A stretch of 64,000 bases of DNA. Source: an uncultured Rhodospirillaceae bacterium. Lineage in GTDB: Bacteria; Pseudomonadota; Alphaproteobacteria; MPNO01; UBA830. The notes under the pieces were generated by a model. The model saw only the letters and a list, made by a program, of their open reading frames with translations, made no database searches and was not told where the DNA came from. The stretch lies in contig CAXBCP010000023.1 in assembly GCA_963974055.1 (NCBI GenBank), forward strand, positions 11,666 through 75,665, written 5' to 3'. A program made the translations under genes and the position numbers. This document shows, piece after piece, positions 3,505 to 24,858 of the stretch (the first letter of the stretch is position 1; every line of letters starts with the position of its first letter).

Positions 3505-3515
3505 TACGATATACC

Positions 3516-3902: not shown

Positions 3903-3909
3903 TTGGCTG
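3903..3909 (+). repeat. Left attachment core TTGGCTG
   Basis: Identical to 24825-24831; context GAGATTGGCTG versus GAGATTTGGCTG. Confidence 0.75.
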
Positions 3910-4005
3910 CCCTTCTTGAACACGTATAGAACCAATTGTCTCGCGCCGGAGGCTGAATTTCGCAGGCTCATTCAAGAAATTTCTAATCTCGACGCGGCGG
4001 CATAG
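3904..4005 (+). other. Displaced C-terminal coding segment of the island recombinase (WLPFLNTYRTNCLAPEAEFRRLIQEISNLDAAA*)
   Basis: Open frame starting at the att core TGG CTG, the same two codons the recombinase reads in frame at 24826-24831; has no start codon of its own. Confidence 0.7.
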
Positions 4006-4302
4006 CGGAAATTCGGGCCATGCGCAGACAACGAACGTTTCGAGCCCGTCGACGCCGTTCGACGCTGCGCAGCGAATGACCGCTTCCGGGACAGCCCGAC
4101 GAAAAACGTGTCAAGTCAGGGTGGAGTTTTGCCAAGGGGCTCTGACAAAGCAATCTTAAGCGTCCACACTGGACCTCTTGCGCGGGTCACTATGACCTTC
4201 GTTGGTTTATCTCAAAGCACACAAAAGCTCCTTGCAGGTGGGTAGAGACACCACCTTGGAGAGGACACCGGGATGGGGTTGTAACATAAACATTCTCGCA
4301 GG

Positions 4303-6516
4303 TTACTCGGGCCGAACGATCTTATGGTCGACCAGCGGTCCTTCAAGAATCTTGCTCACGCCGCTCCGCTCATTCGTAGTCGCGATCACGAGCTCCTGAG
4401 CGGCCCTACTCGCCCCAAGATACACGCGGGAAATGTAGCGCCTTTTGGCACCGATCCCCATGCCATCAACCGACCAATCGGCGTCGTCTAGATTTACGAG
4501 AAACACGGAATCAAACTGTAGTCCCGCCACGTATTCCGGCATGCTAAGGACGCATCTCTTCTTTGCGTATCTCAACTCTCGCATGTCATCGCGGGACACC
4601 ACAGTGACCACTTTGTCTTTGACCCTCGATGCCATCATGTACGTCTTGAAGCGCTCTTCGTTCATACAGAGGACTGCCACCTGCCGGCCGCCTCCATCCA
4701 AGGCGTTCGCTCTCCGGTTCGCCTCCTCCAAAACGCTATCGATCATTTCGATGTCGGTCTCGAACTCCCAGAGCTCTGGAACCGGCCCGCTTTCCCGGCT
4801 TGAATTGCCGGAGTATTCTCGAAATTCCCCCTCCAGATCCAGCGCAGGAAAGCTCGCATCCAGCCCGGCGAGCAGCTCGACGATTTCCGGCGTCGACCGG
4901 TATACTTTCTCAAGATCGACCTGTTCGGACGGCCCAATGCCAGGGTTGCGGAACCGCTTTCCGCCCACATTCAGGGCGTTGTCGGAGGTGCTCTGCTTCA
5001 GGTCGTAGGCCATGAGAAGCGGCCACTTCCCGTCTACGCGTGCCCGGGTTGCGAAAAGGTTGTGGAAAACCATCGCCTCAACCCGATTGAAGTAGTGATA
5101 CTCGTCCACGAAAATGGCGTCGAACCCGACGGAATCGCGGAGTTGATCCCATTCGTGCAGGACGAGATATCTTTCGAAATCGGATATCATCTGGTCCATA
5201 CTCAGGAAATTCTCGGCCCGAAGTGCTTGGCGGTATTTCTCGTGAAGTTCTAGAAGCAGCTTCCGATCAGCCTCGGTCTTGAGCTCCATCTGCCATCTCT
5301 CTCGTGTAGTCGTGACATACCGAGCGGCTTCAGTCGTTCCCTTCCGGATTTTCTCCGCATCGAGAATACACGCGAATTCGTTTCCGATTTCCTGAATTAG
5401 AGTGTCGGGCGGATCGTCATCATCGAAGATCTCCAGCAAACTCTCGCATTGTTTGCGGAGCGTAAGCACGAAACGCGGATGCAATCGGATTTCCTTGATC
5501 GCGTCGCGTATTAGCATTGCCTGTATCTCTCGGCCTTCCATTCCGTCTGAGGAGAGTGGGGTAAGGCCCTTTTTCTCGTAGCTTAGCAACTCGCGTGCAA
5601 GCTCGTAGAGCGTGCCGACCCAGAGCTTCGGCTTTCCGTCCACGGTCTGAAGAGACGCCCATCTCTCGGTGGGGTCGAGCGCGTGGAACGTTTGCCTGAG
5701 AACGTCGTGGGCCAGAGCGGAACTGTGCGTCAGGAACGCGAACCTCTTTTGGTTCTCGCCGTCAGCGTCCTCATAGAGGTCCCTCAAGCATTTTACGGCC
5801 ATCGCCTGTGTCTTTCCTGTTCCTGCCGCGCCGCGCAGGCGCACAGGGGCGGAATAGTCTTTTTCGACGAATGCCAGCTGCTCTTTATTAAGCTTGTATT
5901 GGTACCATTCTTGCAGCGTTCCGGACGAACTGAGGTCCAGCTTCTTGGGCATCAACAAGAGGATACCGTATTCTCCGACTGTCGATGTCCGTTCTTTGTC
6001 GTCCTTAACCAAGGCGTCAAGAAACCCTTCCTTGGCACGTTCGTAGACCGTATAGCTAATATTCAAACCATTGAAGCCCTGTGTTTCGGACGTCACTGCA
6101 AAAACGAAAAGGTTGGTGTTGTCGCCCTGCGGCGATTGGTCGAAGTGGAGCCGCGGCCCCCCCGGTCGCCTAGACGGCGCGGCATAGATCGAAAGGAGTG
6201 ATCCCTCACGGTAGGGTTGCCACGCAATCGGCAATGAAATGTTGCGGTCGAATTGTCGCATCCCCACACGGGCGATGCGACTCAGAAGAGCAATCGAACT
6301 GATCTCCGGGCTGAAGATCACCGCGTCGGCGACCACGAAAGCGCTTGTTTCGTCGGCGTCGTCCGTAAGTATATATACGATATCATTTAGTTCGACCTTT
6401 CGAAGACCCAAGGCATTGTCGGGAATATCGAAATTTTCGAACCAAGACTCGTCGATCAGCGCGGAATCAAGCGCAGAGAGAGCGGACCCGACAATAACAA
6501 CCCCCTTATACGCCAT
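4303..6516 (-). CDS. UvrD/REP-like superfamily 1 helicase with an uncharacterised N-terminal region
   Basis: GAAGTGKT (I), FLTHSSAL (Ia), IFVDEYH (II), YDLKQS (III), VYRSTPEI (IV), GLQFDSVFL (V), YLGASRA (VI). Confidence 0.8.
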   Translation of the reverse strand: MAYKGVVIVGSALSALDSALIDESWFENFDIPDNALGLRKVELNDIVYILTDDADETSAFVVADAVIFSPEISSIALLSRIARVGMRQFDRNISLPIAWQPYREGSLLSIYAAPSRRPGGPRLHFDQSPQGDNTNLFVFAVTSETQGFNGLNISYTVYERAKEGFLDALVKDDKERTSTVGEYGILLLMPKKLDLSSSGTLQEWYQYKLNKEQLAFVEKDYSAPVRLRGAAGTGKTQAMAVKCLRDLYEDADGENQKRFAFLTHSSALAHDVLRQTFHALDPTERWASLQTVDGKPKLWVGTLYELARELLSYEKKGLTPLSSDGMEGREIQAMLIRDAIKEIRLHPRFVLTLRKQCESLLEIFDDDDPPDTLIQEIGNEFACILDAEKIRKGTTEAARYVTTTRERWQMELKTEADRKLLLELHEKYRQALRAENFLSMDQMISDFERYLVLHEWDQLRDSVGFDAIFVDEYHYFNRVEAMVFHNLFATRARVDGKWPLLMAYDLKQSTSDNALNVGGKRFRNPGIGPSEQVDLEKVYRSTPEIVELLAGLDASFPALDLEGEFREYSGNSSRESGPVPELWEFETDIEMIDSVLEEANRRANALDGGGRQVAVLCMNEERFKTYMMASRVKDKVVTVVSRDDMRELRYAKKRCVLSMPEYVAGLQFDSVFLVNLDDADWSVDGMGIGAKRRYISRVYLGASRAAQELVIATTNERSGVSKILEGPLVDHKIVRPE

Positions 6517-7363
6517 TATTAGCTACCTCCGAGTTCTTTTGGTCGACCAGCAGTTGGGCCGCCACCCGGCATTCTTCCTCAAATGCTCGCGGCGACCCTA
6601 TCCGCGAGAAAAGAAAGGCCATCTTCTGCACTATCTGGTACCTCAGTCCATCGGAGAACCGACCGACCCTGTAGAAAGCGTGTGGTTGATCGTGAATTCT
6701 GATCTCTGCTATCGATCGAAATACTTCGGTTTCGGGGACGCCGGAGATGTCGCGCAGCCGGACGACGAACCCTTCAGATTTGCTTCCTGGGATGCCGGGG
6801 ACGAACACGTAATCAGCGAAGCCGCCCGGCTGCTCCAAGCAGCGTCGCGCCTCGTCTAGAATCTTTTCTCGCTTCTGCGAAAATGTCTCCGCGCATTTCA
6901 AGAGATCCGAAAGCCCCTCACTGTCGCCGTTCGAACACAAAGCCGCGTTGATAGCGGTGATCCTCGCGCGCAGCTTGACGTCTTCCACACCGATGGTATC
7001 GATAATCTGGTCGGCGCCCTCTTCCTGCATCCACTGCAACAGATCCGCAGTCTCCAGAAGGCGCAAACTAGCATCTTTACTCTTCAAGAGTGAATTCAAC
7101 TGTTCGCAGATGGGGCCGAGTTGCTTTTGTACCAACTTGTCAAGTTGCTCCTTTGCCCAATAGCGCTCGATGAACCTGTCCGCGGGAATGATCTCCATCC
7201 AGGAGATCAGGCTAGAGTTCTTTTTTTGTTCGATGTCGCAATCGGCGTTCAGGATGAAGCCCCATTGAAACTGCTCCTCATTGTCTATTGGGACCGCACG
7301 GCGAATGATGTCGCCCTGCATGAAGTTCTCGTCCTCGGAGACCTCCTGAAGATGGTCAGCCAT
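6506..7363 (-). CDS. Hypothetical protein (QGDI...ILNADCD motif; possibly PemK/MazF-like fold)
   Basis: ATG at 7363 with a strong GAGGAGGGG RBS; 285 aa; overlaps the helicase start by 11 nt; fold call is inference. Confidence 0.7.
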   Translation of the reverse strand: MADHLQEVSEDENFMQGDIIRRAVPIDNEEQFQWGFILNADCDIEQKKNSSLISWMEIIPADRFIERYWAKEQLDKLVQKQLGPICEQLNSLLKSKDASLRLLETADLLQWMQEEGADQIIDTIGVEDVKLRARITAINAALCSNGDSEGLSDLLKCAETFSQKREKILDEARRCLEQPGGFADYVFVPGIPGSKSEGFVVRLRDISGVPETEVFRSIAEIRIHDQPHAFYRVGRFSDGLRYQIVQKMAFLFSRIGSPRAFEEECRVAAQLLVDQKNSEVANNGV

Positions 7364-7714
7364 CAGGACACCCCTCCTCGGCATAGAGCAACAAACAAGG
7401 TCGGGTCCTGCCGAATCCTACCGACTTGAATCGGCAAGATGTCGGGGCGCGACGTACTTGGCAGTAGCGGTGGTGACCACTCGGATTATGCATTAGATTC
7501 GGCATTTAGTTGTGCGGCTTTTGCCAAGTTAGTGCTTCCAATACGTAGCCTCGCCGATGGCACCACGCTTGGCAACCCGGTGTGTATCGGCCTAGTTGGG
7601 ACTAAGAGCCTTACTTCTACAGTCGGAAATGGTTCACTTGGCACAGACAATCGATTTCTGGGCAGGGTTTGTGTCCGGGATCAACCTTATAGCTTTCGGC
7701 ACGACAGCCAAAGT

Positions 7715-7880
7715 CGAGTTTCGGCGATTGGTGAAGGCGTTGTCCGTCGTTTTGCCCGCTGGCGAGAAGTCCAGCGCAACGCTTTTCTGATAGGCTTGCA
7801 GTTCCAGGGCCCGCGAGAGGAAATCGCTGCCCTGATCGACATGGATCGTTTTCGGATAAAGTACGCCAGATAAACCGATC
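7715..7880 (-). pseudogene. IS3-family transposase (integrase core) remnant
   Basis: YPKTIHVDQGSDFLSRALELQAYQKSVALDFSPAGKTTDNAF resembles the IS3 OrfB xDNGxEF...WAY...LDFSRPGKPTDNAF segment; rest of the element missing; limits approximate. Confidence 0.7.
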
Positions 7881-8270
7881 AAACGAGGTTGGGGGCAGCC
7901 AAGGCTCTGGGAGGCGTTACGACAGGGTCGAGGGGATGGCGACCTCTTCGGCCGGAGATCGAGCCTGAACTCAACACAGAAATGCGGGGATGGGGCGATA
8001 CTGCCCGGAAAGGTCTTCCAATTAACAAGCCTCATCTCGATCGGTGTCAGGGGCAATACCACTGGATCGTGAGAGTTTCTGGGTATCTGTAACAAAAAAG
8101 TGGCCCAGATTTAGGGAGGAAGTACCCATTTCCGACTTGAATCGCCGTCTCCGGATCCAGATGCAGCACCCAGCCCTGCGCCTCGTTTTGGTCATTGTTT
8201 AGTAATCGCTATACGATTCGGGGTTGTTAAGTGTAAAGTGCTTTCTAAACAAAAACTGGAGTGAGGGACC

Positions 8271-8627
8271 ATGACTGACGTTAGCGAGAGATTCGGCGCG
8301 TACATACGGGAAAAACGGGAAGAAAAGGGGATCAGTTTGCGGGATATGGCGAGGCAGATCTCGGCGAGTCCCACATTTGTATCGAAGGTGGAAACTGAGG
8401 ACTGGAAGCCTGGCGAGGAAAAGCTGCGAAAGATAGCTCACGTCATCGAGTGCGATGAGGAGGAACTGATTGCGATGGCAGGGCGCGTGCCGTCAGAACT
8501 CTCAGATATCATCAAGCAGCACGCACATCGTCATGAACTTTCGGCATTGCTGCGGACGACACAGGGAATGTCCGCAGAAGAACTTGGAAAGCTGGTTGAG
8601 CAGGCGAAGAAAGCAAAAATGGATTGA
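8271..8627 (+). CDS. XRE family HTH transcriptional regulator (ImmR-like)
   Basis: FGAYIREKREEKGISLRDMARQISASPTFVSKVE HTH_3 signature. Confidence 0.9.
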   Translation: MTDVSERFGAYIREKREEKGISLRDMARQISASPTFVSKVETEDWKPGEEKLRKIAHVIECDEEELIAMAGRVPSELSDIIKQHAHRHELSALLRTTQGMSAEELGKLVEQAKKAKMD

Positions 8628-8678
8628 TTGCCTGCGAAAGTGGGCGCCCCCCGAAGATGAAAATGAGGATAACGAAAT

Positions 8679-9446
8679 ATGTCGATTAAGGTCAGGTATC
8701 TCTCCAAGGACGAGATCGAACTGGAGGCGGAGCTGCTGCTCGCGCAATACGCGGAGACGATCGGTGGCCCCGTGAAGCTGCCTGTCCCGGTCGACGAAAT
8801 AACAAAATATCATCTTGCGCTCCAATTAGAATTTGCCGATCTCCACGATGTTCTCGATGTTCCCAGGCAGCGCAATACGCCCGATATTCTGGGGGCAATT
8901 TGGGTCGATAAGGAAGTTATCCTGATCGACGAAATGCTCGATCCGAATGGTTACCCCTCCATGGCGGGACGCTACCGTTTCAGCGTGGCGCACGAAATCG
9001 GTCACTGGTGCCTTCACCGGGACTATGTTTCAAAGGATACCAGACAAGCTGCACTGTTCGACGCCCCGTCAGAACCGACGGTAATCTGCCGCTCCGGACT
9101 AACGAGAGAGCCGATTGAATGGCAGGCGGATAAATATGCATCCTGTTTGCTGATGCCGCGTCTCAAAGTGCGGGAGATGTGGCAAGAGCGTTTCAACAGC
9201 AAGCGCCCCTTGCTGCTTTCGTCCCTGAAACCGAATGTCGATGTGATGATGCGCGCGCACAATTTGATGTGCGGGCAGGGCAAATCTGAGGTCGCCGCTG
9301 TCAATGATGCACTTTTCGAGGAGGTCTCGAAACCGATTGCCCGACGCTTCGGCGTTTCGCCGTCGGCAATGCGGATACGGTTGGAAGAACTCGGTTTATT
9401 GCTGCGCGAGGCGCCAAAGCAGTCCGCATTAACGGATAGTTTTTGA
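8679..9446 (+). CDS. ImmA/IrrE family metallopeptidase
   Basis: RYRFSVAHEIGHW (HExxH) and EWQADKYASCLLMP motifs; adjacent to the XRE gene. Confidence 0.9.
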   Translation: MSIKVRYLSKDEIELEAELLLAQYAETIGGPVKLPVPVDEITKYHLALQLEFADLHDVLDVPRQRNTPDILGAIWVDKEVILIDEMLDPNGYPSMAGRYRFSVAHEIGHWCLHRDYVSKDTRQAALFDAPSEPTVICRSGLTREPIEWQADKYASCLLMPRLKVREMWQERFNSKRPLLLSSLKPNVDVMMRAHNLMCGQGKSEVAAVNDALFEEVSKPIARRFGVSPSAMRIRLEELGLLLREAPKQSALTDSF

Positions 9447-9470
9447 CTCTTTTTTTGGAAGGATTGTTAA

Positions 9471-9737
9471 GTGTCAACTGAACGATACGCGCAAGCATCA
9501 CCTCAGGCATGTGTCGCGTTTGAGACGTCAGATTTCTATCTGGCCTGTTTCTTGCGCTGTTCAGGATATGCGTTGCTTGATCTCCGGCCAGCAGGTCGTC
9601 GAAAGATATTTGTGTTTAAGGATAGCCCCGAGCGCCCGACCGATGTGCTGTCCTTCTACGGCGACAACACAACCGTCCCGCCGCTCGCATTCTCTTCCAC
9701 CATCAAAGACATGAAGGCGCTGTTATACAATGGATAA
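9471..9737 (+). CDS. Small hypothetical protein (DUF5659-like)
   Basis: TSDFYLACFLRCSGY pattern recalled from mobile-element proteins; GTG start. Confidence 0.6.
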   Translation: MSTERYAQASPQACVAFETSDFYLACFLRCSGYALLDLRPAGRRKIFVFKDSPERPTDVLSFYGDNTTVPPLAFSSTIKDMKALLYNG

Positions 9738-9951
9738 CCATCAGATCATCGAACCGAATAACCACGCCTGCGGCCCGCAGGCTCGCGAAGCTATCGACCG
9801 CCTGATCGAAGTAGTCTTGGACGGATTGCGGCACGGACATTTTCACTGCGCGATTTCGAGTGGAGTCGGAAAGGGCAACCGTCGCGAACTCGTGATTGAG
9901 GCAGGTAAGAGCCACAAGTTTGTTATCCCCGAGAATGAGCTGCGGGGCTGA
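9730..9951 (+). CDS. Small hypothetical island protein
   Basis: 73 aa, overlaps the upstream stop; LDGLRHGHF...RELVIEAGKSHKF. Confidence 0.65.
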   Translation: MDNHQIIEPNNHACGPQAREAIDRLIEVVLDGLRHGHFHCAISSGVGKGNRRELVIEAGKSHKFVIPENELRG

Positions 9952-10076
9952 CAGCGCGAACGAACGGCGATCCCTGGGATTGGGACGCCGAACATGCAAA
10001 TGACAATACGATCCAGCGTTATCGGTGGGAATCCGAGGCCGGAGATCAGAGGCACGGAGCGGCGAAGAGCCGGCCG

Positions 10077-10321
10077 TGAGATCTTCGGTGAAAGCTGCAA
10101 ACGACAATCAGAATGACGACCAGATCGAACGAACCCGTGAGGTATGGCAACCGCGCGTCGGGCGCGACCTGAGCCGCGACGAGGCACAACAGATTGCTGC
10201 CAACGTTACTGGCTTTTTCTCTGTCCTGGCCGAGTGGTCACGGGCCGAACTGCCGATGCCCGCGAACGATAATTCCAACGGGTTACCTCCTGACGACAAG
10301 GGGGTGCGCCATGACCGTTGA
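10077..10321 (+). CDS. Small hypothetical island protein
   Basis: IERTREVWQPRVGRDLSRDEAQQIAANVTGFFSVLAEW; overlaps the primase start; start codon uncertain. Confidence 0.55.
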
Positions 10322-12899: not shown

Positions 12900-13447
12900 A
12901 CGCACCCAAAGCTATAATGGAGGCCCGTGCGGCGGGTGTCCAAATCCTCCTCGACGGCGAAGACCTGGTTCTTGAAGCCTCATCACCACCCCCGGAATCC
13001 GTTCTCGACGCACTGTCCCGCAACAAGGTCGGGATTGTCACCCTGCTGCGTCTGGCTAACGACGGGTGGTCGTCCGACGACTGGCAGGCGTTCTTCGACG
13101 AACGCGCAGGCATCGCCGAGTTCGATGCAGGGCAGACACCGGAGCAGGCTGAAACCACCGCGTTCGAGTGCTGCATGGTCGAATGGCTTGATCGCCATTT
13201 ATTCCGTACCGACCCGGGGCGCTGCGCTGCGTGCGGCGAGCCCGACAGGGACGGGCATACCGTCGTTCCCTACGGGGCAGAAAGCCACGGTCACACCTGG
13301 CTTCATCCCGCCTGTCGGGGTGATTGGAACCGGTATAGACGGCAGCAGGCACGGCAGTTCCTGGAAGGCGCTGGGATCAGAGGTCGGTCCGAAGCGACGG
13401 AAAGGACCAAGTTTCCAAACGATCTCGGAAAAAACGGGGGCGCATGA
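12896..13447 (+). CDS. Hypothetical protein typical of primase-downstream modules
   Basis: ATGA-coupled to the primase; FFDERAGIAEFDAG and CAAC...HPAC motifs. Confidence 0.65.
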   Translation: MNAPKAIMEARAAGVQILLDGEDLVLEASSPPPESVLDALSRNKVGIVTLLRLANDGWSSDDWQAFFDERAGIAEFDAGQTPEQAETTAFECCMVEWLDRHLFRTDPGRCAACGEPDRDGHTVVPYGAESHGHTWLHPACRGDWNRYRRQQARQFLEGAGIRGRSEATERTKFPNDLGKNGGA

Positions 13448-14085
13448 TGGGTGGATTCGGGTCCGGGCGGCCCAGTGGATACGGGCGCCAGATTGTGGAA
13501 GCCTGCCGGTCGATCGATGTGAACCGGTTACATCGGGAGGGCTGTCTTGTTCCGGGATGGGGAGGTGGGTGGCAATGGACGTGTGATGGGGAGAAGGTAG
13601 CGTCGATCAATATGCGCGCCGAGGACGACCTGCTGAACCTTTCCTATCGGGTGCGCATCGCCGACGGCGACTGGGAAGACGTGGGGGAGACCGTCCGCAT
13701 CGTCCGCGTACCCTGCCGGTTCGGCGGCACAAGGCCCTATTTCATCTGCCCTGGCGTCGTCGACGGCGCTGTCTGTGGCCGGCGCGTGGTGAAACTGTAC
13801 GGCCCGGGACGTTATTTTCTTTGCCGCCATTGTTACCGCCTTGCGAATGCGAGCCAGAACGAGGAGGCGTGGGACCGGTCACTACGGCGTGCGGGGAAAA
13901 TCAGACGGCGGCTCGGTGGCGAGGATGGGGCTGCGATACCGTTCCCGGCGCGTCCCAAAGGCATGTGGCAACGCACCTATGAGAGGTTGCGCGAGGAAGC
14001 CCTGGAGGCGGAAATTCTGGCCGATGAAGCTTTTATTATGAGAGCCCAACGGCTTCTCAATCATCTAGAAAGATCAAACCGATAA
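13444..14085 (+). CDS. Hypothetical protein (GGFGSGR N-terminus, Cys-rich)
   Basis: 213 aa, ATGA overlap with the upstream gene; RPYFICPG...CRHCYRL. Confidence 0.65.
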   Translation: MMGGFGSGRPSGYGRQIVEACRSIDVNRLHREGCLVPGWGGGWQWTCDGEKVASINMRAEDDLLNLSYRVRIADGDWEDVGETVRIVRVPCRFGGTRPYFICPGVVDGAVCGRRVVKLYGPGRYFLCRHCYRLANASQNEEAWDRSLRRAGKIRRRLGGEDGAAIPFPARPKGMWQRTYERLREEALEAEILADEAFIMRAQRLLNHLERSNR

Positions 14086-14099
14086 AGGAGTTTCCGACC

Positions 14100-15063: not shown

Positions 15064-15091
15064 ACTGCTTTAGAGCTAGACGGGGAAACCG

Positions 15092-15295: not shown

Positions 15296-15381
15296 TTCTC
15301 AAGCTGGCGCTGCTGGGTGATCGGCTGGTCCGCTATCCAGACCAACAAGTAGGCGATGTTGCCCGTCGGGCGGCTGCTTGA
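15292..15381 (+). CDS. 29-aa small ORF coupled to phd (MILKLALLGDRLVRYPDQQVGDVARRAAA)
   Basis: ATGA overlap with the phd stop and a GGAGGAG RBS; may be a remnant. Confidence 0.35.
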   Translation: MILKLALLGDRLVRYPDQQVGDVARRAAA

Positions 15382-15428
15382 GGCGCTGCGCGAGCAAGAC
15401 CTCGACACCAAGAAAAGCAAGGACGACT

Positions 15429-17438
15429 ATGAATACAAATACCTCCCTGGCCGATTTCATCTGGAAAAACGCGGATGATCTCTGGGGTAATTTCAAGCAC
15501 ACCGATTTCGGCAAGATCATCTTACCTTTCACGCTTCTTCGGCGCCTTGAGTGCGTCCTGGAGCCGACGCGGGAGCAGGTCCGAGAGACGTTCGCTTCTA
15601 TGAAAGACAAGGGGATAGACCTTGATGTCATCCTGCGCACGCAGACCGACTACCCGTTCTACAACACCTCGAATTACGACCTGCGCAGCCTCGGCGCAAC
15701 CCGGACCCGTCAGAACCTCGAGGACTACATTGCCTCCTTCTCTGACAACGCGCGCGTGATCTTCGAACAGTTCGATTTCGCGAACACGCTGGCGCGGATG
15801 GACAAGGCTGGGGTCCTCTACAAGATATGCCAGAACTTCGCCGCCATCGACCTCCACCCGGACGCGGTTCCGGAACGGGTGATGTCCAACGTCTACGAAC
15901 ACCTGATCCGGCGCTTCGGCGCCGAGGTGAACGAGGCGGCCGAAGACTTCATGACCCCGCGCGACGTCGTCCATCTGGCCATCGAGCTGCTGCTCGACCC
16001 GGACGACCAGATGTTCATCGACAACCCCGGCCTGATCCGGACCCTCTATGACCCCACCTGCGGCACCGGCGGCTTCCTGTCGGACGGGATGGAGCACGTG
16101 AACGCGCTGCGCGACCAGTATTCGGTCGCCCCGGTCATCGTCCCCTACGGTCAGGAACTGGAACCGGAGACCCACGCGGTCTGCCTCGCCTCAATGCTGC
16201 TCAAGACCGTCGAGTCCGATCCCGGCCGCGACCTGTCTAAGAACATCAAGCTCGGCAGCACCCTGTCCGACGACAAGCTGGCGAACGACCGGTTCCACTA
16301 CTGCGTCTCGAATCCTCCCTTCGGCAAGAAATGGGAGATGGACCAGGTCGACGTGGTGCGGGAGCATCAGGAAAAGGGGTTCGAGGGCCGGTTCGGCCCC
16401 AAGCTGCCGCGTGTCAGCGACGGGTCGATGCTGTTCCTGCTTCATCTTCTTAGCAAGCTGGAGGCGCCGGAACGCGGTGGCGGGCGGGCGGCCATCGTCT
16501 TGTCCGGCTCGCCCCTGTTCAACGGGAACGCGGGACAGGGCGAATCCGAGATTCGGCGCTATCTGCTTGAGGAGGACGTGGTCGAGGCGATCATCGCGCT
16601 TCCGACCGAGATCTTCTTCCGCACCGGGATCGGCACCTACATCTGGCTCCTGTCCAACAAGAAGCCTGCCGCCCGAAAGGGCAAGGTCCAACTGATCGAC
16701 GCGACCGCGCTCTATGAGCCCATGCGCAAGAGCGAGGGGAACAAGCGCCGCCGCGTCGGGGACGACCAGATCCGCCAGATCGTCCAGATGTATGCCGACT
16801 TCGCCGAGACGAAGGAGAGCCGTCTATTCGACAGCCGCGACTTCGGCTACCGCCGGGTGAAGGTTCTGCGCCCGCTGCGCAAGAAGATCGTGATCTCGGC
16901 CGAGGGGCTGGCGGCGCTGGCGGATGAAACCGCATGGGGCAAGCTCGCGCCCGAAGTGCAGATCGCCTGGACCGCGCTGTTAGAGGACATGATGGGCGAC
17001 GAGCAGGCCTGGAGCTGGGTCGACACGTGGGCGAAGGAAGCGGCAAAGCAGGACTCGGGTCTGGGCAAGGTGAACGCCGCCCTGATCAAGGCGTTCCATA
17101 AATCCTTCGGCCTGCGGGACCCGGACCTCGATCCGGTGCTTGACAAGAAGGGTGAGATCATCCCCGACGACGACCTGACGGATTTCGAGAACATCCCCCT
17201 TGGCACGGACATCCGGGACTACATGGCGCAGGAGGTGCTGCCCCATGCGCACGACGCCTATGTGGATGAGACGTTCCGCGACGACTACGACGGCCAGGTG
17301 GGCGTCGTGGGGTACGAGATCAACTTCAACCGCTACTTCTATGAATATCAGCCGCCCCGCGATCTCGAGGTGATCGACGCCGAGCTGAAGGCGGTCGAGG
17401 CGGAGATCGCCGCGGTGCTGGCGGAGGTGACGGAATGA
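15429..17438 (+). CDS. hsdM: Type I restriction-modification methyltransferase subunit
   Basis: ADFIWKNAD, DFMTPRDVV, YDPTCGTGGFL (SAM binding), VSNPPFG (N6-adenine catalytic motif). Confidence 0.95.
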   Translation: MNTNTSLADFIWKNADDLWGNFKHTDFGKIILPFTLLRRLECVLEPTREQVRETFASMKDKGIDLDVILRTQTDYPFYNTSNYDLRSLGATRTRQNLEDYIASFSDNARVIFEQFDFANTLARMDKAGVLYKICQNFAAIDLHPDAVPERVMSNVYEHLIRRFGAEVNEAAEDFMTPRDVVHLAIELLLDPDDQMFIDNPGLIRTLYDPTCGTGGFLSDGMEHVNALRDQYSVAPVIVPYGQELEPETHAVCLASMLLKTVESDPGRDLSKNIKLGSTLSDDKLANDRFHYCVSNPPFGKKWEMDQVDVVREHQEKGFEGRFGPKLPRVSDGSMLFLLHLLSKLEAPERGGGRAAIVLSGSPLFNGNAGQGESEIRRYLLEEDVVEAIIALPTEIFFRTGIGTYIWLLSNKKPAARKGKVQLIDATALYEPMRKSEGNKRRRVGDDQIRQIVQMYADFAETKESRLFDSRDFGYRRVKVLRPLRKKIVISAEGLAALADETAWGKLAPEVQIAWTALLEDMMGDEQAWSWVDTWAKEAAKQDSGLGKVNAALIKAFHKSFGLRDPDLDPVLDKKGEIIPDDDLTDFENIPLGTDIRDYMAQEVLPHAHDAYVDETFRDDYDGQVGVVGYEINFNRYFYEYQPPRDLEVIDAELKAVEAEIAAVLAEVTE

Positions 17439-18658
17439 GTTACCGGCGCCCCGTTGAGGTGAAGCCCGCCAAAGCGCCGTGGATTGAGGAAATTCCGGCG
17501 CATTGGGATGAGCGCCCCTTCTATGCAGTCGCGAAAGAGCGGCGGTCGAAGAACATTGGGATGAAAGAGGATAACCTTTTGTCCCTGAGCTACGGAAATA
17601 TCATCCGCAAGGACATAAACACGCCGAACGGCCTGCTGCCCGAGTCATTCGAGACCTACCAGATTGTCGAACCGCACGATGTCGTTTTCCGTCTGACCGA
17701 CCTCCAGAACGACAAGCGCAGCCTGCGGTCAGCGATCTGCCCGGAACGGGGGATCATCACGTCCGCCTATCTGGCAGTCCGGTCAGAGGGCGTGCTGCCG
17801 GGCTTCATGAGCTACCTGATGCGGGCCTATGACGTTCAGAAGGTCTTTTACTCGATGGGTGGTGGCCTGCGTCAGTCGCTGGGGTTTGAAGACCTACGCC
17901 GAATGTCGGTGGTCGCTCCGGGACTTGATGAGCAGGCCAACATCGTTGCGTTCCTCGACCGAGAAACCGCCCAGATTGACGGCCTGGTCGAGAAGAAGAC
18001 CCGGTTCATCGCGCTGCTGAAGGAAAAGCGGGCAGCTGACATCATCGAGGCGATATCCCCCAAGGAGGGATGGAACCGCTTCCCCTTCTGGTCTGTAGCC
18101 AATGCGAAGTCGATTTCCGGCCGTCCGGATGTAGATCTTCTGTCAGTCTATCTTGATAGAGGCGTTATTCCGTATTCGGAGGGCGGCGGTTTGGTTCACA
18201 AACCTGCCGAGAGCCTCGAAAAATACCAGTTGGTAGAGCCAGGCGACCTGGTGCTGAACAACCAGCAAGCGTGGCGCGGTTCTCTGGGGGTATCTCTTCA
18301 TCGGGGCATTGTCAGCCCCGCCTATCTCGTCCTGAAGCTGGATAGGGAAAAGCTCGATCCAACCTTCGCAAACTACATGTTCCGAGCTCGACCGTATGTC
18401 GAGAAATTCATGCTTGCCTCGATGAGTGTTGGAGACATTCAGCGGCAGATTAAATGGCCGCACCTGCGAATTGTCCCAGTGGTGGTTCCGAGTGTTACAG
18501 AACAGCGCGAAATTGCTGAGCGCCTCGATAGTGAGGGAAAGCGCATTAATGATCTGATCACGCTAACCGAGCGCAGCATCGACCTACTCCGCGAGAAGCG
18601 TGCGGCACTCATCACTGCCGCCGTCACCGGCAAAGTCGACGTGAGTGCCACACCATGA
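17435..18658 (+). CDS. hsdS: Type I restriction-modification specificity subunit
   Basis: EEIPAHW N-terminus, two TRDs separated by EQANIVAFLDRETAQID...KEKR, C-terminal EKRAALITAAVTGK. Confidence 0.93.
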   Translation: MSYRRPVEVKPAKAPWIEEIPAHWDERPFYAVAKERRSKNIGMKEDNLLSLSYGNIIRKDINTPNGLLPESFETYQIVEPHDVVFRLTDLQNDKRSLRSAICPERGIITSAYLAVRSEGVLPGFMSYLMRAYDVQKVFYSMGGGLRQSLGFEDLRRMSVVAPGLDEQANIVAFLDRETAQIDGLVEKKTRFIALLKEKRAADIIEAISPKEGWNRFPFWSVANAKSISGRPDVDLLSVYLDRGVIPYSEGGGLVHKPAESLEKYQLVEPGDLVLNNQQAWRGSLGVSLHRGIVSPAYLVLKLDREKLDPTFANYMFRARPYVEKFMLASMSVGDIQRQIKWPHLRIVPVVVPSVTEQREIAERLDSEGKRINDLITLTERSIDLLREKRAALITAAVTGKVDVSATP

Positions 18659-21600
18659 GTGACCTCCACCACGAGAAGCATCTCGAGTCCCATATCGTCG
18701 GCAAGCTCGCCGAGGCGGGCTGGCTGGTCGGCACCTCAGGTGCCTACGACACGGACCGCGCCATGTATCCAGAAGATCTGGAGGCCTGGCTGCGCGCCAC
18801 CCAGCCGCAGAAATGGGACCGGCTTCAGGCGATGAACGGCGACAAGACCCTGACGGTCGTTATGGACCGGCTGGAGACAGCGCTGGAAAAACAGGGGATG
18901 GTCCAGACCCTCCGCCGGGGCTTCTCGATCGCCGGCGCCGGTCACCTCGACCTGTCCGAGGCAGCCCCGGAGGACCAGCGCAACGAGAAGGTCCTGCAAC
19001 GCTACGCATCGAACCGGCTGCGGGTCGTGCCGCAGCTGAAATATCACCCGGGCCGCGAGCTCGCCATCGACCTCGGGCTGTTCCTGAACGGCCTGCCGCT
19101 CGCCACGGTCGAGCTGAAGACGGATTTCACCCAGTCGGTCGAACACGCAAAAGCCCAGTACCGGCGAGACCGCCCCCCGGTTGATCCTGTCACGAAACGC
19201 AAGCACCCGCTCTTGACGTATCAGCGGGGTGCGGTGGTGCATTTCGCGATGTCGGACAGCGAGATCTGGATGACCACGAAGCTCGCGGGCGACGACACCT
19301 TCTTCCTGCCGTTCAACAAGGGTGACGATGGCCGGGCAGGAAACCCGGCGGGGGAGGGTGGCGAATACCCGGTCGCCTATTTCTGGGAGGAGATCTGCCG
19401 ACGCGACGCGTTCTTGCGGATTTTTCATAGCTTCGTCTATGTCGAGAAGAAGAACGTGGTGGACCTGAAGGGGAACTGGTCGGTCAAGGAGACGCTGATC
19501 TTTCCCCGGTTCCATCAGTTTGACGCGGTCAACAGGATGATCGCCGACGCGAAGGCGAGGGGACCCGGGCATCCCTACCTGTGCGAGCACAGCGCGGGCT
19601 CGGGCAAGACCTCGACCATCGCCTGGACGGCTCATGATCTGGTGAAGCTACGCCGGGACGACGGGACGCCGATCTTCGACACGGTGATCATCGTGACGGA
19701 CCGGAACGTCCTGGACGGGCAGCTTCAGGACGCGGTCCAGCAGATCGACCACCAGAAGGGGCTGATCGCCGCGATCGACAGGGAGACCTCGTCGAAGTCG
19801 AAGAGCGACCAGTTGAGCGAGGCGATGCTGAAGGGCACCCCGATCATCGTGGTGACCATCCAGACCTTTCCCTTCGCCATGGAGGCAATCCTGACAGAGA
19901 CGTCCCTGCGGGACCGGAACTTCGCAGTGATCATCGACGAGGCGCACAATTCCCAGACCGGGAACACCGCCTCCAAACTGCAAGCAACGCTTGCCCTGTC
20001 TGCGCGCAAGGATGTGGAGGAGATGACGGTCGAGGACATTCTGGTGGAGATCCAGCGAGCCCGGAAGCGCCCGTCGAACGTGTCCCATTTCGCCTTCACC
20101 GCGACCCCGAAGCACTCGACCATGATGCTCTTCGGGCGCCCGGCCGATCTCACCAAGCCCGCCTCGGACGACAACCTGCTGGTCTCATTCCACAAGTACG
20201 AGATGCGCCAGGCGATCGAGGAAGGGTTCATCCTGGACGTTCTCCGCGGCTACGTCCCCTACAAGACCGCCTTCAACCTCGGACAGGAAATCGTCGACGA
20301 GAAGCGTGTTGACGGAAAGGCGGCAAAGCGCGCCCTGGCGAAATGGATGACGCTCCACCCGACGAACGTGACCCAGAAGGTTCAGTTCATCATCGAGCAT
20401 TTCTCGAAGAACGTCGCCCATCTGTTGGACGGGAAAGCAAAGGCGATGGTGGTAACCAGTTCCCGGGCCTCAGCGGTTCGGTACAAGCGCGCCTTCGATG
20501 CATTTATCGAAGCGAACCCGGAATATGGATACATTCGGACCCTTGTTGCCTTCTCCGGCAAGCTGACCGGGCGCGAAGTAATGCACCCTAACGACGATCT
20601 GCTACATGGGGACGTCTTCGTCGTCGAGGAGGACGCCGAGTTCACCGAGGCGAACATGAACCGGGAGACAGGCGGCAAGGACCTGCGCCACGTCTTCGAC
20701 CGGCCGGAATACCGGGTCATGCTCGTGGCGGACAAGTTCCAGACCGGGTTCGACCAGCCTAAGCTGGTCGCGATGTATGTGGACAAGAAGATCGCGAACA
20801 CGGTTGAGATCGTCCAGACCTTCTCGCGCCTGAACCGGACCTTTCCGGGCAAGGATCAGACCTTCATCATCGATTTCGTGAACGATCCGGACGTGGTCCG
20901 GGCCGCATTCGCCCAGTACGACCGGGGCGCGCGGATCGAGGAGGTTCAGGACCTCAACGTCATCTACGACCTGAAGGAATTCCTCGACAACCAAGGGATC
21001 TATGACGAGACCCACATTCTCGACTTTCAGGCCGCCCGTTTTCGGACCGCTGCGTCTGCGGCGACCGGAAAGGACGACGAGGCGGTGCACAAGGAGATGT
21101 ACGCCGCGACCCAGGAGCCGACAGACGCCTACAACCGGCGCCTGTCCGAGCTGCGGGATCGCGCGGCAGCGGCGGAGGACGCTTGGCAGCGCGCGAGGAG
21201 TGCTGGGAACGAAGATGGGATGAAGCGAGCCGATCACGAACGCGAGCAGGTCGAAACGGCGATCGTTTCCCTCACTGACTTCAAGTCAGGCTTGTCCCGG
21301 TTCGGACGGCTCTACGCCTATATCGCCCAGCTGGTAGATTTAGGAGACCCAGACTTGGAGACTTTTGCCGCCTTCTCGAAGCTGCTTGCGAACCGGCTCG
21401 ACGGAGTGCCTGCGGTTGAGATCGACCTGCACGGCATTGCGCTGACCGGGTACGACATCACGGATCGGGAACCGACAAACGAAGGCGAGGACGAGGAGCC
21501 GCCCACCCTCGACCCGGTGAAGGGCGGTGGCGGCGGCTCTCTACCCGGCGCTCTGCCCGTGTACATGCAGGAGCTGATTGAGCGGCTGAACAGCCTGTTT

Positions 21601-21888
21601 GGCGAGGCGACCCCGATCGAGGATCAGGTCGCCTTCGTGAATCAGGTGGCTGCGATCACTCGCGAAAATCCTGTGGTGATGGCGCAGATCGAGAAGAACA
21701 CCAAGGACCAAGCAATGAAGGGCAATCTTCCCGGAGCGGTCCAGGCTGCAGTGGTGCGGGCGATGTCATCGCACAGCGCGCTAGCGTCCCTCCTCCTAAG
21801 CAGAGACCGGCAGGCCATGCCTATTTTGGAGGGCGTAATCTATGAGATCCTAAAGCGTGGCGGGACGCTGAGCTTTTACGATCAATGA
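18655..21888 (+). CDS. hsdR: Type I restriction endonuclease subunit R
   Basis: GLPLATVELK nuclease motif, HSAGSGKT Walker A, IIDEAH, TATP, QTGFDQP, QTFSRLNR. Confidence 0.95.
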   Translation: MSDLHHEKHLESHIVGKLAEAGWLVGTSGAYDTDRAMYPEDLEAWLRATQPQKWDRLQAMNGDKTLTVVMDRLETALEKQGMVQTLRRGFSIAGAGHLDLSEAAPEDQRNEKVLQRYASNRLRVVPQLKYHPGRELAIDLGLFLNGLPLATVELKTDFTQSVEHAKAQYRRDRPPVDPVTKRKHPLLTYQRGAVVHFAMSDSEIWMTTKLAGDDTFFLPFNKGDDGRAGNPAGEGGEYPVAYFWEEICRRDAFLRIFHSFVYVEKKNVVDLKGNWSVKETLIFPRFHQFDAVNRMIADAKARGPGHPYLCEHSAGSGKTSTIAWTAHDLVKLRRDDGTPIFDTVIIVTDRNVLDGQLQDAVQQIDHQKGLIAAIDRETSSKSKSDQLSEAMLKGTPIIVVTIQTFPFAMEAILTETSLRDRNFAVIIDEAHNSQTGNTASKLQATLALSARKDVEEMTVEDILVEIQRARKRPSNVSHFAFTATPKHSTMMLFGRPADLTKPASDDNLLVSFHKYEMRQAIEEGFILDVLRGYVPYKTAFNLGQEIVDEKRVDGKAAKRALAKWMTLHPTNVTQKVQFIIEHFSKNVAHLLDGKAKAMVVTSSRASAVRYKRAFDAFIEANPEYGYIRTLVAFSGKLTGREVMHPNDDLLHGDVFVVEEDAEFTEANMNRETGGKDLRHVFDRPEYRVMLVADKFQTGFDQPKLVAMYVDKKIANTVEIVQTFSRLNRTFPGKDQTFIIDFVNDPDVVRAAFAQYDRGARIEEVQDLNVIYDLKEFLDNQGIYDETHILDFQAARFRTAASAATGKDDEAVHKEMYAATQEPTDAYNRRLSELRDRAAAAEDAWQRARSAGNEDGMKRADHEREQVETAIVSLTDFKSGLSRFGRLYAYIAQLVDLGDPDLETFAAFSKLLANRLDGVPAVEIDLHGIALTGYDITDREPTNEGEDEEPPTLDPVKGGGGGSLPGALPVYMQELIERLNSLFGEATPIEDQVAFVNQVAAITRENPVVMAQIEKNTKDQAMKGNLPGAVQAAVVRAMSSHSALASLLLSRDRQAMPILEGVIYEILKRGGTLSFYDQ

Positions 21889-21930
21889 GTTGGAGCCCCG
21901 AAATAAATTGAGATTCTTCAAGGCAGCAGA

Positions 21931-23151
21931 ATGAGTGTGACGGCAAGCTTCCTTCACGGGTATCCTCAGACGAAGATCGCTACGATGATTTGCGACCGTC
22001 TGGCACGCTGCGGCGAAGCGCAGATCGTGTCGGGTTTTGCGACACCTGATGGAATTGAGGCGCTACGCGCCAGATCGTACTCGAATAAGATCACCCGTTT
22101 CGTGCTCGGCGCAGGTACTTTCAAGGCCTTCGAAGCATTGGATGACCTGTTAACTTCTGGACTACCGCCCAATGCGGCACGGGTTCATCTCGGGCATACA
22201 CGTGCAACCGGAGGCAGGAAAAACCCGTTTGCACGATTGCGACCCATGCTTCACAGCAAGGTCTATTACTTCGAAATGCCCGACGGAAAGGCAGCGGCCT
22301 TTGTCGGCTCTCATAACCTGACCGGATTCGCCATGCGCGGGTTGAACGGCGAGGCTGCGGTCCTTCTTGAGGGTGAAACTTCAGACACTGTCTTCGACGA
22401 GATTCGAGCGCATGTCGCGGAGAGTTATCGACAAGCCGTTGCCTATGATACATCGCTCAAGGAAGCGTATGCGCTCTGGTTCCGTGAATATCTTGAAGGG
22501 TTGCGCATTGAGACGTCCGATATGCCGCGGGACGATGAAAGCCGGCGTACGGTAATCCTATTTGCGAAGGCGCCTGCGGGACGAATTCCCTCGGAAGGGG
22601 ATCGGGTTTATTTCGAACTCGATCTGCGGATCACCGACGTCAAAGCCATCGACACAGAAGTGCATTTGCATCTTTTTGAAACGATGCCGGCTAACCCGGC
22701 AGAAGCGCTCTCGCGCTCCAGTCAATCTGACACCGCCCTTTTGGGCAAGGTGGAAGCAATTGATTCCGCCGCGGGCTCTGCCGAGGTCAGGGCGGATTGG
22801 TTTATTGATGACCCTTCGAATCCTGAATTGAAGCCAGCGGTGGCGCCATTTCGGCCGATTTTATCGCCCGGCAAACAACAGGTGCGTGCGGAGATCTCGG
22901 AGGACCTTATGACACGATTTGACTATCTATTCGATTCAGGAAGAGGGAAATGGGTCCCAACTTTGGGTAATGAGACGGTCGTCGAAGAGGGTACAGATCT
23001 GGTTTGGTCCCGAGTGGAGGGGCTTCGTGAACAAGAAAGCGGGGAGGTAGGGCAACAAATGATGTTGGCCGACCTTCGGGAGATATCGCCAGAGTCGGGC
23101 TCCTTTGTTCTCTTCTCACGCAGGCGCCGAAAGCTTGGCACGCGCGAATGA
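21931..23151 (+). CDS. Phospholipase D-superfamily (HKD) nuclease-like protein, NgoFVII/BfiI-like N-terminus
   Basis: MLHSKVYYFE...FVGSHNLT...NGE is a single HxK/GSxN PLD nuclease motif; C-terminal half unrecognised. Confidence 0.7.
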   Translation: MSVTASFLHGYPQTKIATMICDRLARCGEAQIVSGFATPDGIEALRARSYSNKITRFVLGAGTFKAFEALDDLLTSGLPPNAARVHLGHTRATGGRKNPFARLRPMLHSKVYYFEMPDGKAAAFVGSHNLTGFAMRGLNGEAAVLLEGETSDTVFDEIRAHVAESYRQAVAYDTSLKEAYALWFREYLEGLRIETSDMPRDDESRRTVILFAKAPAGRIPSEGDRVYFELDLRITDVKAIDTEVHLHLFETMPANPAEALSRSSQSDTALLGKVEAIDSAAGSAEVRADWFIDDPSNPELKPAVAPFRPILSPGKQQVRAEISEDLMTRFDYLFDSGRGKWVPTLGNETVVEEGTDLVWSRVEGLREQESGEVGQQMMLADLREISPESGSFVLFSRRRRKLGTRE

Positions 23152-23224
23152 GACTGAAAACTAACTGAAGCATGCTCCAGGCGCGGGGATAGCCTCTGAG
23201 AAGCTTGAGCGATAAGTATTCAGG

Positions 23225-23276
23225 GTTGTGCTGGGCATATTGTTTAGTATATACTAAACAATATGCCCAGCACAAC
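23225..23276. repeat. Perfect 52-bp palindrome covering the recombinase promoter and start codon
   Basis: GTTGTGCTGGGCATATTGTTTAGTAT|ATACTAAACAATATGCCCAGCACAAC, 26-bp arms, no spacer. Confidence 0.95.
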
Positions 23277-24858
23277 AAACAAATCCAAAAGCGAGGCCGC
23301 CGGCGATGTCAGCCGGGCGGTGCTCTATGCCCGCGTCTCCTCCAAAGAACAAGAGAAGGAAGGCTTCTCGATCCCGGCACAGCTTAAGCTGCTGAAGGAG
23401 TACGCCGCGCGCGAAGGGTTGTCCGTCGTTCAAGAGTTCGTTGACGTGGAAACGGCCAAGCAGACGGGCCGCACCAACTTCTCTGAGATGATCGCATTTC
23501 TGCGTGCCAATCCCGGGGTTCGGATCATTCTGGTCGAGAAGACCGACCGCCTTTACCGAAACCTTAAGGACTGGGTGATGCTCGACGAGATTGACGTCGA
23601 AATCCATCTCGTCAAGGAAGGCGTGGTCTTGTCGCGTGACTCGAGGTCGTCGGAGAAGTTCATGCATGGCATCAAGGTTTTGATGGCCAAGAACTACATC
23701 GACAACCTGTCCGAGGAAGCGCGTAAAGGTATGCAGGAGAAGGCCGAGCAGGGCATCTGGCCGACCAAAGCGCCGCTCGGCTATCGCAATATCACGGGGC
23801 CGGACGGAAAGAAGATCATCGACGTCAATCCCGAGGTCGCCCCGATCGTTGGAAAGCTGTTCGAATGGTATGCCGCTGGAAGTTATTCGCTGAAGGAGCT
23901 TGGCAGAAAGGCGGCAGCGGAGGGTTTCCGCTATCCGCGGTCCGGCGCCCGTGTTCCGAACAGCACGATCCACACGATCCTGCGGAACCGGCTCTATACC
24001 GGCCAGTTCGAATGGAACGGCAAGTTGATCGTGGGTAAGCACGAACCGCTGGTTTCGGCTGAGCTTTGGCAGCGCGTTCAGGACGTGCTCGACGGTCGGA
24101 ACGCCAAAAAGCACCGGCGTATGAAACATGATTTCGCTTTTTCGGGGCTTATCGGCTGTGCGAAATGTGGCTGCTCGGTCGTCGGTGAGATCAAGAAGCA
24201 GAAATACATCTACTATCACTGTACCGGCTACGCCGATAAGTGCCGGGAGGATCCCGCCGCCTGCCGCAGGAAGTATGTTCGCGAGGAAGCGTTGGAGGCC
24301 CAGTTCTCGGAACTGCTTGGCAAGCTGTGTTTCGACGACGAAGTGCTGGAATGGGTGCGGGAGGCACTGCATGCTAGCAAAGCTGACGAACAGCGGGAAC
24401 ATGGTGAAGCAATTAGGCGGTTGAGGACTGAGTATGACCGCCTGCAGCACCGCATCGATGTGATGTATATCGATAAGTTGGACGGAAAAATCGGCGGCGA
24501 GTTCTTCGACCGGATGGCCGGAGATTGGCGGGAGGAACAGTCTCGTTGCCTGAAAGACATCGAACGCCACCAGGAAGCACAGCAGTCTTACATGGACGAG
24601 GGAGTGAAGATTCTCGAACTCGCGCAGAACGCTCAAACGCTGTTCGAACGCCAGCCCGCTCGAGAAAAGCGGCGATTACTGAACTTCGTACTTTCGAACT
24701 GCTCGTGGGACGATGGCGAATTGATCGCCGAATTCCGGCAACCCTTTGATTTATTGGCGAAAACCACTGCCACTTCCTCCCAAAAACGGGCAGAAAACGG
24801 CGGGAGTGTGATAAAAAAAGAGATTTGGCTGGGGAACCTGGATTCGAACCAGGACTAA
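23263..24858 (+). CDS. Large serine recombinase (integrase)
   Basis: VLYARVSSKEQ catalytic Ser motif, VEKTDRLYRN, recombinase domain, CAKCG...YYHC zinc ribbon, coiled coil; last codons run antisense into the tRNA. Confidence 0.95.
   Translation: MPSTTNKSKSEAAGDVSRAVLYARVSSKEQEKEGFSIPAQLKLLKEYAAREGLSVVQEFVDVETAKQTGRTNFSEMIAFLRANPGVRIILVEKTDRLYRNLKDWVMLDEIDVEIHLVKEGVVLSRDSRSSEKFMHGIKVLMAKNYIDNLSEEARKGMQEKAEQGIWPTKAPLGYRNITGPDGKKIIDVNPEVAPIVGKLFEWYAAGSYSLKELGRKAAAEGFRYPRSGARVPNSTIHTILRNRLYTGQFEWNGKLIVGKHEPLVSAELWQRVQDVLDGRNAKKHRRMKHDFAFSGLIGCAKCGCSVVGEIKKQKYIYYHCTGYADKCREDPAACRRKYVREEALEAQFSELLGKLCFDDEVLEWVREALHASKADEQREHGEAIRRLRTEYDRLQHRIDVMYIDKLDGKIGGEFFDRMAGDWREEQSRCLKDIERHQEAQQSYMDEGVKILELAQNAQTLFERQPAREKRRLLNFVLSNCSWDDGELIAEFRQPFDLLAKTTATSSQKRAENGGSVIKKEIWLGNLDSNQD
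24825..24831 (+). repeat. Right attachment core TTGGCTG
   Basis: Overlaps the tRNA-Gln 3' CCA and recombinase codons W522/L523. Confidence 0.75.

Follow-up and report, generated by a model that had tools for sequence, protein, structure and literature searches.

Comparative sequence analysis of an alphaproteobacterial island whose serine recombinase gene appears to span its own attachment site at the CCA end of a tRNA gene

The subject of this analysis is a stretch of 64,000 nucleotides (hereafter the window) of an uncultured Rhodospirillaceae bacterium (class Alphaproteobacteria; assembly GCA_963974055.1, contig CAXBCP010000023.1, positions 11,666 to 75,665). It carries an island of about 21 kb, at one border of which a recombinase gene runs into the antisense strand of a tRNA-Gln gene. 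Does this gene really end within the tRNA, or does its own 3' end lie at the opposite border of the island, detached by integration? An earlier note on this DNA had proposed that the attachment site of the element (attP) lies inside the recombinase gene and that integration exchanges the C-terminus of the enzyme. This interpretation is supported by the island junctions, the empty site in relatives, two classes of C-terminus among homologues, purifying selection on the detached tail and one contig (L019) with a joined gene. We give a probability of about 0.85 to the reading in which attP is located inside a large serine recombinase (LSR) gene, the free circle encodes the full-length enzyme and integration swaps its tail.

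Borders of the island and the empty site in relatives

The recombinase open reading frame (ORF; 531 codons, ending in KKEIWLGNLDSNQD and a stop codon) terminates 33 nt into the antisense strand of the tRNA-Gln gene. Codons 1-523 are the element's own, and the final eight codons with the stop are the antisense of the acceptor and T arms of the tRNA. Two copies of the sequence TTGGCTG mark the borders. In the right copy, TGG CTG (24826-24831) is the antisense of the ...CAGCCA-3' end of tRNA-Gln, while the left copy opens a frame (from position 3904) that reads WLPFLNTYRTNCLAPEAEFRRLIQEISNLDAAA up to a stop codon and ends in DAAA. When the two parts are joined at the core, the reading frame is kept and encodes 554 aa. 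The coordinates and reading frames of the earlier note (the ORF, the core copies and the 554-aa join) all proved correct. The 7-bp repeat alone carries no weight: TTGGCTG occurs four times in the window against 6.1 copies expected, and 82 of 100 shuffled sequences reach four copies. Its significance comes from comparative evidence only.

For this comparison both flanks of the island were joined in silico and run against 40 relatives. In a member of the same family (G010) the joined flanks were matched in one piece, and in a member of the same genus (G001), whose tRNA-Gln is identical, they are nearly contiguous, a distance of 169 nt separating the hairpin region of the left flank from the tRNA. 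The junction sequence of G001 is GCTGAAAATTGGCTGGGGAACC, compared with CCTGGAGATTGGCTG followed by CCCTTC at the left border (attL) of the window and AAAGAGATTTGGCTG followed by GGGAACC at the right border (attR); the last 8 nt ahead of the core align with the flank of the empty site (attB) in G001. Because the flanks are joined in relatives and because of the G001 junction, the island is placed exactly at the 3' end of the tRNA, and the island-free relatives thus have the junction that the earlier note had expected. As judged from sequence, the region 3910-24824 (20.9 kb between the cores; G+C content ~54-60% inside and 62-68% in the flanks) is an integrative island inserted at the CCA end of tRNA-Gln. 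In three further relatives (G004-G006) flank and tRNA are separated by spacers of ~800 bp, in which no remnant of an integrase or tail is present.

The identity shared between attachment sites of the family is limited to TGG and a few more bases, which fits a 2-bp crossover. Conservation in 112 attL flanks is below 0.25 bit per position, and no motif for the left arm of attB could be defined from them. The sixth position of the core (CTG or CTC) might track the tRNA target (Gln or Asn), since two pairs fit; a further case, G094, is uncertain, its ends lying on different contigs.

The left flank itself (3489-3816) includes a strong terminator as well as hairpins whose loops are of the CCTACCC type. 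Relatives of the same genus have it at 80-88% identity, with weaker partial copies elsewhere in those genomes. The flank gave no Rfam match at E <= 0.01; it may represent an unannotated small RNA family.

The recombinase appears from its sequence to be a complete LSR, with Resolvase (PF00239; residues 19-165, E = 4e-23), Recombinase (PF07508; E = 6e-17) and Zn_ribbon_recom (PF13408; E = 2.5e-11) domains. The catalytic motif YARVSS is present, and Y21, R23, S25 and S26 are invariant across 50 homologues. Only serine-recombinase domains were found, and no tyrosine recombinase catalytic domain. The nearest solved relative is the A118 integrase (residues 227-360 match structures 4kis and 6dnw), and there is also sequence similarity to the TP901-1 integrase. 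In the AlphaFold2 model of a homologue, P0028, a coiled coil at residues 358-454 is predicted as two long antiparallel helices (358-405 and 411-454), with a predicted local distance difference test score (pLDDT) of about 90 at residues 380-430. The integrase ATG (23263) is overlapped by a 52-bp palindrome, which is probably an operator or a translational hairpin controlling the gene; the palindrome core, GTTTAG-N4-6-CTAAAC, is kept immediately 5' of the ATG in the distant relatives L019 and L146.

Two classes of C-terminus, the detached tail and the joined gene

The 120 closest homologues (71-77% identity) are conserved through ...FRQPFDLLAETT, a variable linker and K-x-E-I-W-(L), and diverge beyond this point. 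W521 is invariant in them, and its codon TGG is the antisense of the tRNA CCA. After this Trp the sequence is tRNA antisense in about 98% of the 120 homologues, the tails seen being LGDLDSNQD, LGNLDSNQD, LGREDSNLR, RPRQDSNLR, LPGPDSNQR and the short LGD and LGN, the latter two closed by a stop. The short GD class arises from a tRNA-Gln variant reading TGG CTG GGG GAC TAG. Two homologues, P0028 and P0084, continue with LPFL[ND]TYRTMC instead. The two C-terminus classes that the earlier note had predicted are thus both found, at about 115 of 120 for the tRNA-antisense class and two for the W-L-P-F-L-[ND]-T-Y-R class. An even sample of 400 genomes of the class contained five carriers, and in all five the 3' end of the LSR gene runs antisense into the 3' end of a tRNA gene from TGG onward (Gln-CTG twice, Gln-TTG once, Asn-GTT twice). 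Both island ends are on one contig in Kordiimonadales IMCC3096 (CP018227.1; 17.8-kb island) and in G221:C2 (15.9-kb island). In CP018227.1 attL is located at 3,444,852 and the integrase gene at 3,461,054-3,462,646, with tRNA-Gln after it. Other cultured carriers are Jannaschia seohaensis DSM 25227, Enterovirga rhinocerotis DSM 25903, Mesorhizobium wenxiniae WYCCWR 10195 and Amaricoccus sp. W119.

The tail was traced with a back-translated WLPFL[ND]TYRT pattern in 185,579 species genomes, which gave at least 119 matching stretches. The peptide encoded at 3904-4005 matches, as had been anticipated, homologue tails, and it also matches the far ends of at least 119 islands in other genomes. The following figures are drawn from 120 tails among the matches listed, beyond the part fixed by the search pattern. 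At most loci the sequence before TGG is an unrelated flank with in-frame stops, i.e., the left end of an integrated island, and the frame is open for exactly 33 codons in 85 of the 120 tails. C12 (83/84) and P15 (82/84) are near-invariant, as are F19 and L23, and the variation falls mostly on third codon positions. The last two positions are among the most conserved: 58 of the 85 33-codon tails (68%) end in -AA (LAA 30, FAA 11, VAA 6, IAA 5 and AAA 3). The dN/dS ratio of non-synonymous to synonymous change (Nei-Gojobori, codons 11-33) is 0.205 in the integrase frame, compared with 1.0 and 2.0 in the other two frames. Synonymous diversity (pS) is lower in codons 2-10 (0.43) than in codons 11-33 (0.69), as expected if the first ~27 nt of the tail, which probably double as the P' half-site, serve in both functions. 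A tail that has no start codon of its own and stands behind a foreign flank, yet is under selection, must be translated as the integrase end in the joined state. These comparisons indicate that attP lies within the integrase gene and that integration trades 31 selected residues for eight unselected ones encoded by the tRNA.

Tails were also observed outside Alphaproteobacteria, namely in Vicinamibacterales (L029, L037 and L121), in delta-proteobacterial metagenome-assembled genomes (MAGs; L057, L103, L104 and L114) and at loci L044 and L109, and these loci include Mb-sized Acidobacteriota contigs; the element family has therefore crossed phylum boundaries. The tail pattern was not found in the viral contig collection, so the element is not catalogued as a virus. 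A protein search with residues 505-553 of P0028 returned only the query (15 candidates), the E-value scale being too strict for 49 residues. At six tail loci of Methylocella-like and other MAGs (L033, L039, L049, L098, L101 and L110) a common flank, AATATGGCGAGCTTTACCGCCTGGATT, directly precedes TGG, which points to a second conserved insertion context or a shared ancestral insertion.

An intact joined gene, encoding the 553-aa P0028, is present in the 15.5-kb Logan contig L019 (sequencing run SRR29352983). The gene order of this contig is as follows: the C-terminal domain of HsdR, hsdM, hsdS, the LSR gene, the junction, a helix-turn-helix (HTH) regulator, an M78 peptidase, DUF5659, a primase and, at the end, the N-terminal domains of HsdR. 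It thus corresponds to one circularly permuted copy without chromosomal flank, and the module HTH, M78 and DUF5659 stands 3' of the joined gene in the same order as at the left end of the island. Within PFLNTYRT the window and L019 differ by five synonymous and zero non-synonymous changes.

A metagenome scan for EIW followed by the tail yielded 36 loci, in most of which only a remnant of the LSR 3' end, 43-155 aa in length, precedes the tail. At one such locus (G043:C28, 15600-15840; L139) the remnant measures ~100 nt and, together with its tail, is situated 24 kb upstream of an integrase gene that is intact and abuts tRNA-Gln. We read these remnant junctions as fossils of serial or tandem insertions: a newcomer entering the attR of a resident element would recreate the P-P' junction, after which the older element would decay. 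Junctions of this kind were observed in L156-L191, L057, L076, L103 and L104, and some contigs carry two or three tails 2-3 kb apart.

Mechanism, role of the tail and alternative explanations

In the proposed mechanism the P arm of attP would be formed by the codons for ...K-x-E-I, the core by TGG plus one to three bases, and the P' arm by the start of the 31-codon tail. Integration would leave the tail at attL and let the gene run into the tRNA antisense at attR, ending after eight codons, and excision would rejoin the gene to give the 554-aa form. The full-length form would be made from the free circle and would perform the attP x attB integration.

What the tail does is a separate question. 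Its [LFVI]-Ala-Ala-COOH end resembles an ssrA-like proteolysis signal, and the tmRNA tag of the host (ANDNDLALAA) likewise ends in LAA; we tentatively suggest that it may act as a degron, at somewhat less than even odds. With such a degron the enzyme of the circle state would be short-lived, and the signal would be lost on integration. The tail may instead, or in addition, tune activity or directionality, by analogy with IntP/IntX of phage Mx8 (see below), a role that is also plausible, at slightly lower odds than the degron. The two are not exclusive and could be combined in a state sensor, in which the circle enzyme is short-lived (ClpXP-type degradation) and/or restricted to attP x attB, and the tail-less integrated enzyme is stable and poised for excision. 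This combination is a possible but uncertain reading; if it is true, the DNA rearrangement itself would set the stability or directionality of the enzyme. Serine integrases are not known to have such a layer of control, and here it would be coupled to a target that is nearly universal, the CCA end of tRNA genes.

Several observations weigh against the tail swap or the roles suggested for the tail. Contig L019 has no terminal overlap, and a collapsed tandem array fits it as well as a circle does. Most of the other attP-like junctions were rejected as live circles, only integrase remnants (43-155 aa) preceding their tails. No recombination directionality factor (RDF) was identified, the case for excision of the island comes from sequence comparison, and the crossover dinucleotide is narrowed by the sequence only to TGG and adjacent bases. 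As to the degron, the tail is conserved along its length (C12, P15, F19 and L23), beyond what a terminal degron alone would need; the window tail ends in DAAA and not in the consensus [LFVI]AA; about a third of the tails do not end in AA and, among the matches listed, 25 of 120 extend past codon 33. The AlphaFold2 model of P0028 gives the linker and tail a pLDDT below 50, with a nominal helix at 537-552, and therefore adds nothing: a flexible, exposed end would agree with the model but does not follow from it.

The same observations can be set against other explanations of the locus. If the sequence after the attL core served as DNA only (a P' half-site, perhaps with a regulatory role), the open frame would be incidental and the 531-aa form the real integrase. 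A serine integrase attP does need ~25 bp on each side of the crossover, and the depressed pS of codons 2-10 does indicate constraint at the DNA level on the first ~27 nt. The conservation, however, covers ~100 nt, far beyond a half-site, its pattern is periodic in the third codon position and the amino-acid replacements are conservative; 85 of the 120 tails listed have their stop at codon 34, a dN/dS of 0.2 is seen only in the integrase frame, and the differences within PFLNTYRT between the window and L019 are all synonymous. We consider this explanation very improbable. It is also unlikely, if less strikingly so, that the swap is real yet neutral, with attP overlapping the gene end as the CCA target imposes TGG, the stop-free extension merely tolerated and the two isoforms alike. 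Known serine integrases vary in their C-terminal extensions past the zinc-ribbon/coiled-coil region and can often do without them, the integrated tails simply follow the tRNA sequence (GD, GN or GNLDSNQD before the stop), and the tail has no confident AlphaFold2 fold. A neutral extension is hard to reconcile with the fixed length, the dN/dS of 0.2, the four near-invariant residues and an -AA terminus kept across Alphaproteobacteria, Acidobacteriota and other phyla.

The element could, finally, be mainly a replicating episome in which the joined gene is the normal one, the chromosomal copies being dead-end insertions that no longer excise. The RepB-type primase encoded by the island (a Toprim primase in relatives), the many chromosomal junctions that are decayed remnants and the purely comparative case for excision of this copy would suit such a life style. 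Yet among homologues there are about 50 integrated copies for each joined one, viral contigs yielded none, and the window retains integrase, tail, tRNA and the two cores in intact form. Islands that share their ends also differ in cargo, which argues for continuing mobility through the integrated state. We judge the episome explanation quite improbable, and retain the reading in which attP lies inside the LSR gene and integration exchanges the tail.

Gene content, known systems and implications

The features of the island and its borders are listed in Table 1. Among its modules, the 901-aa protein with a RepB-primase domain is likely to provide the replication function of the excised element. 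The helicase gene and its overlapping partner, situated at the left end of the island opposite the restriction-modification cargo, form a candidate defence gene pair; the similarity of the UvrD-type helicase to GajB is only weak, and its 292-aa partner has no family match in Pfam or PADLOC. The PLD-family gene begins 42 bp after hsdR and lacks a methylase of its own; its PADLOC matches (ZacB and DrmC) are weak.

Table 1. Features of the island and its borders in the window
Feature	Position	Strand	Remark
Chromosomal left flank: terminator-like hairpin (3780-3816) and spacer	3780-3902		flank directly downstream of tRNA-Gln in relatives
attL core TTGGCTG	3903-3909	+	part shared family-wide: TGG
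Detached 3' end of the integrase gene: Trp, Leu, 31 tail codons, stop	3904-4005	+	WLPFLNTYRTNCLAPEAEFRRLIQEISNLDAAA
Cargo pair: UvrD/GajB-like helicase (4303-6516) and overlapping 292-aa partner (6506-7384)	4303-7384	-	
Conserved left-end module: HTH_3/HTH_31 regulator (8271-8627), M78/IrrE-type peptidase (8679-9446), DUF5659 (9471-9737)	8271-9737	+	
RepB-primase-domain protein, 901 aa	10194-12899	+	
Type I restriction-modification cargo: hsdM (15378-17438), hsdS (17435-18658), hsdR (18655-21888)	15378-21888	+	
PLD-family nuclease-like protein	21931-23151	+	weak ZacB, DrmC matches
Perfect 52-bp palindrome over the integrase start codon	23225-23276		
Large serine recombinase gene, integrated isoform, 531 aa	23263-24858	+	
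attR core TTGGCTG	24825-24831	+	
tRNA-Gln(CTG), intact; 3' end ...CAGCCA = integration target	24826-24899	-	ARAGORN

The closest precedents for this layout are tyrosine-recombinase systems, i.e., Mx8 IntP/IntX, SSV1 and the BPs repressor. The earlier note had named SSV1 and BPs but had missed the closest one, the Mx8 tyrosine integrase IntP/IntX at a tRNA gene. According to a review, attP of this Myxococcus phage falls within the coding sequence of its integrase, insertion takes place at a tRNA gene and integration makes a recombinant gene with a new 3' end; the altered enzyme (IntP to IntX) is still active, with changed properties (PMC6070905, citing Tojo 1996 and Magrini 1999). All three traits, attP inside the integrase ORF, a tRNA-gene target and a new 3' end on integration, recur here. 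Mx8 Int is, however, a tyrosine recombinase with a large attP that depends on accessory factors, while here an LSR swaps a short tail ending in -AA at a core formed by the CCA end. The island integrase works like Mx8 Int but is not a relative of it.

In the Islander paper Mx8 and SSV are given as integrases extending across attP (PMC4383910). The SSV1-type (fusellovirus) systems share attP inside the integrase gene and a tRNA-gene target (PMC4383910), but their integrase is an archaeal tyrosine recombinase whose gene is disrupted by splitting into two large parts, whereas here integration alters the tail only and spares all catalytic and DNA-binding domains. In mycobacteriophage BPs the repressor loses its last 33 residues, which carry an ssrA-like tag, on integration and is thereby stabilised; a proteolysis signal is likewise present at the C-terminus of the BPs integrase (PMC4557955). 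BPs and clusters G, I, N and P are similar to our case in having attP inside a gene, the viral form being unstable and the prophage form stable in BPs. There, however, the split gene is the immunity repressor and the integrase is a tyrosine recombinase, whereas here the split gene is that of the integrase itself; degradation has been demonstrated experimentally for BPs and is predicted here.

With the canonical large serine integrases (A118/LI, phiC31, Bxb1, TP901-1 and SPbeta SprA) the island enzyme shares the Resolvase, Recombinase and zinc-ribbon regions with a coiled coil, and a very short att core. Their attP does not overlap the integrase ORF, and they insert into protein-coding genes or intergenic sites, in contrast to the location inside the ORF and at a tRNA found here. 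A full-text literature search, including the later TIGER/Islander papers, retrieved no serine integrase with this layout; its coverage was incomplete and the result is an absence of evidence only. The statement of the earlier note that it knew of no characterised LSR case agrees with this. According to the 2015 Islander paper, serine integrases were not known to target tRNA genes (PMC4383910). By textbook accounts the use of tRNA genes is confined to tyrosine integrases; the LSRs described here contradict this, and their CCA-end target is present wherever CCA is genome-encoded.

On the evidence of its sequence, the island appears to be a real, intact and well-delimited case in which a serine integrase gene extends across its own attP at the CCA end of a tRNA. 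For annotation this means that integrated copies carry tRNA-derived tails, while the gene properly ends at the opposite border of the island, at a distance of 15-25 kb. Defence genes, restriction-modification systems among them, are carried as cargo by this family through Alphaproteobacteria and into some other phyla.

One-way DNA insertion in synthetic biology and genome engineering relies mainly on serine integrases, whose directionality is attributed to a separate RDF protein. The present case yields a testable hypothesis of control of the integrase that depends on the recombination state: with every recombination event the enzymes of a widespread clade have their C-terminus rewritten, and a degradation signal may thereby be gained or lost. 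If this holds, control of the enzyme would be self-contained, and integrases that limit themselves could possibly be designed on the same principle.

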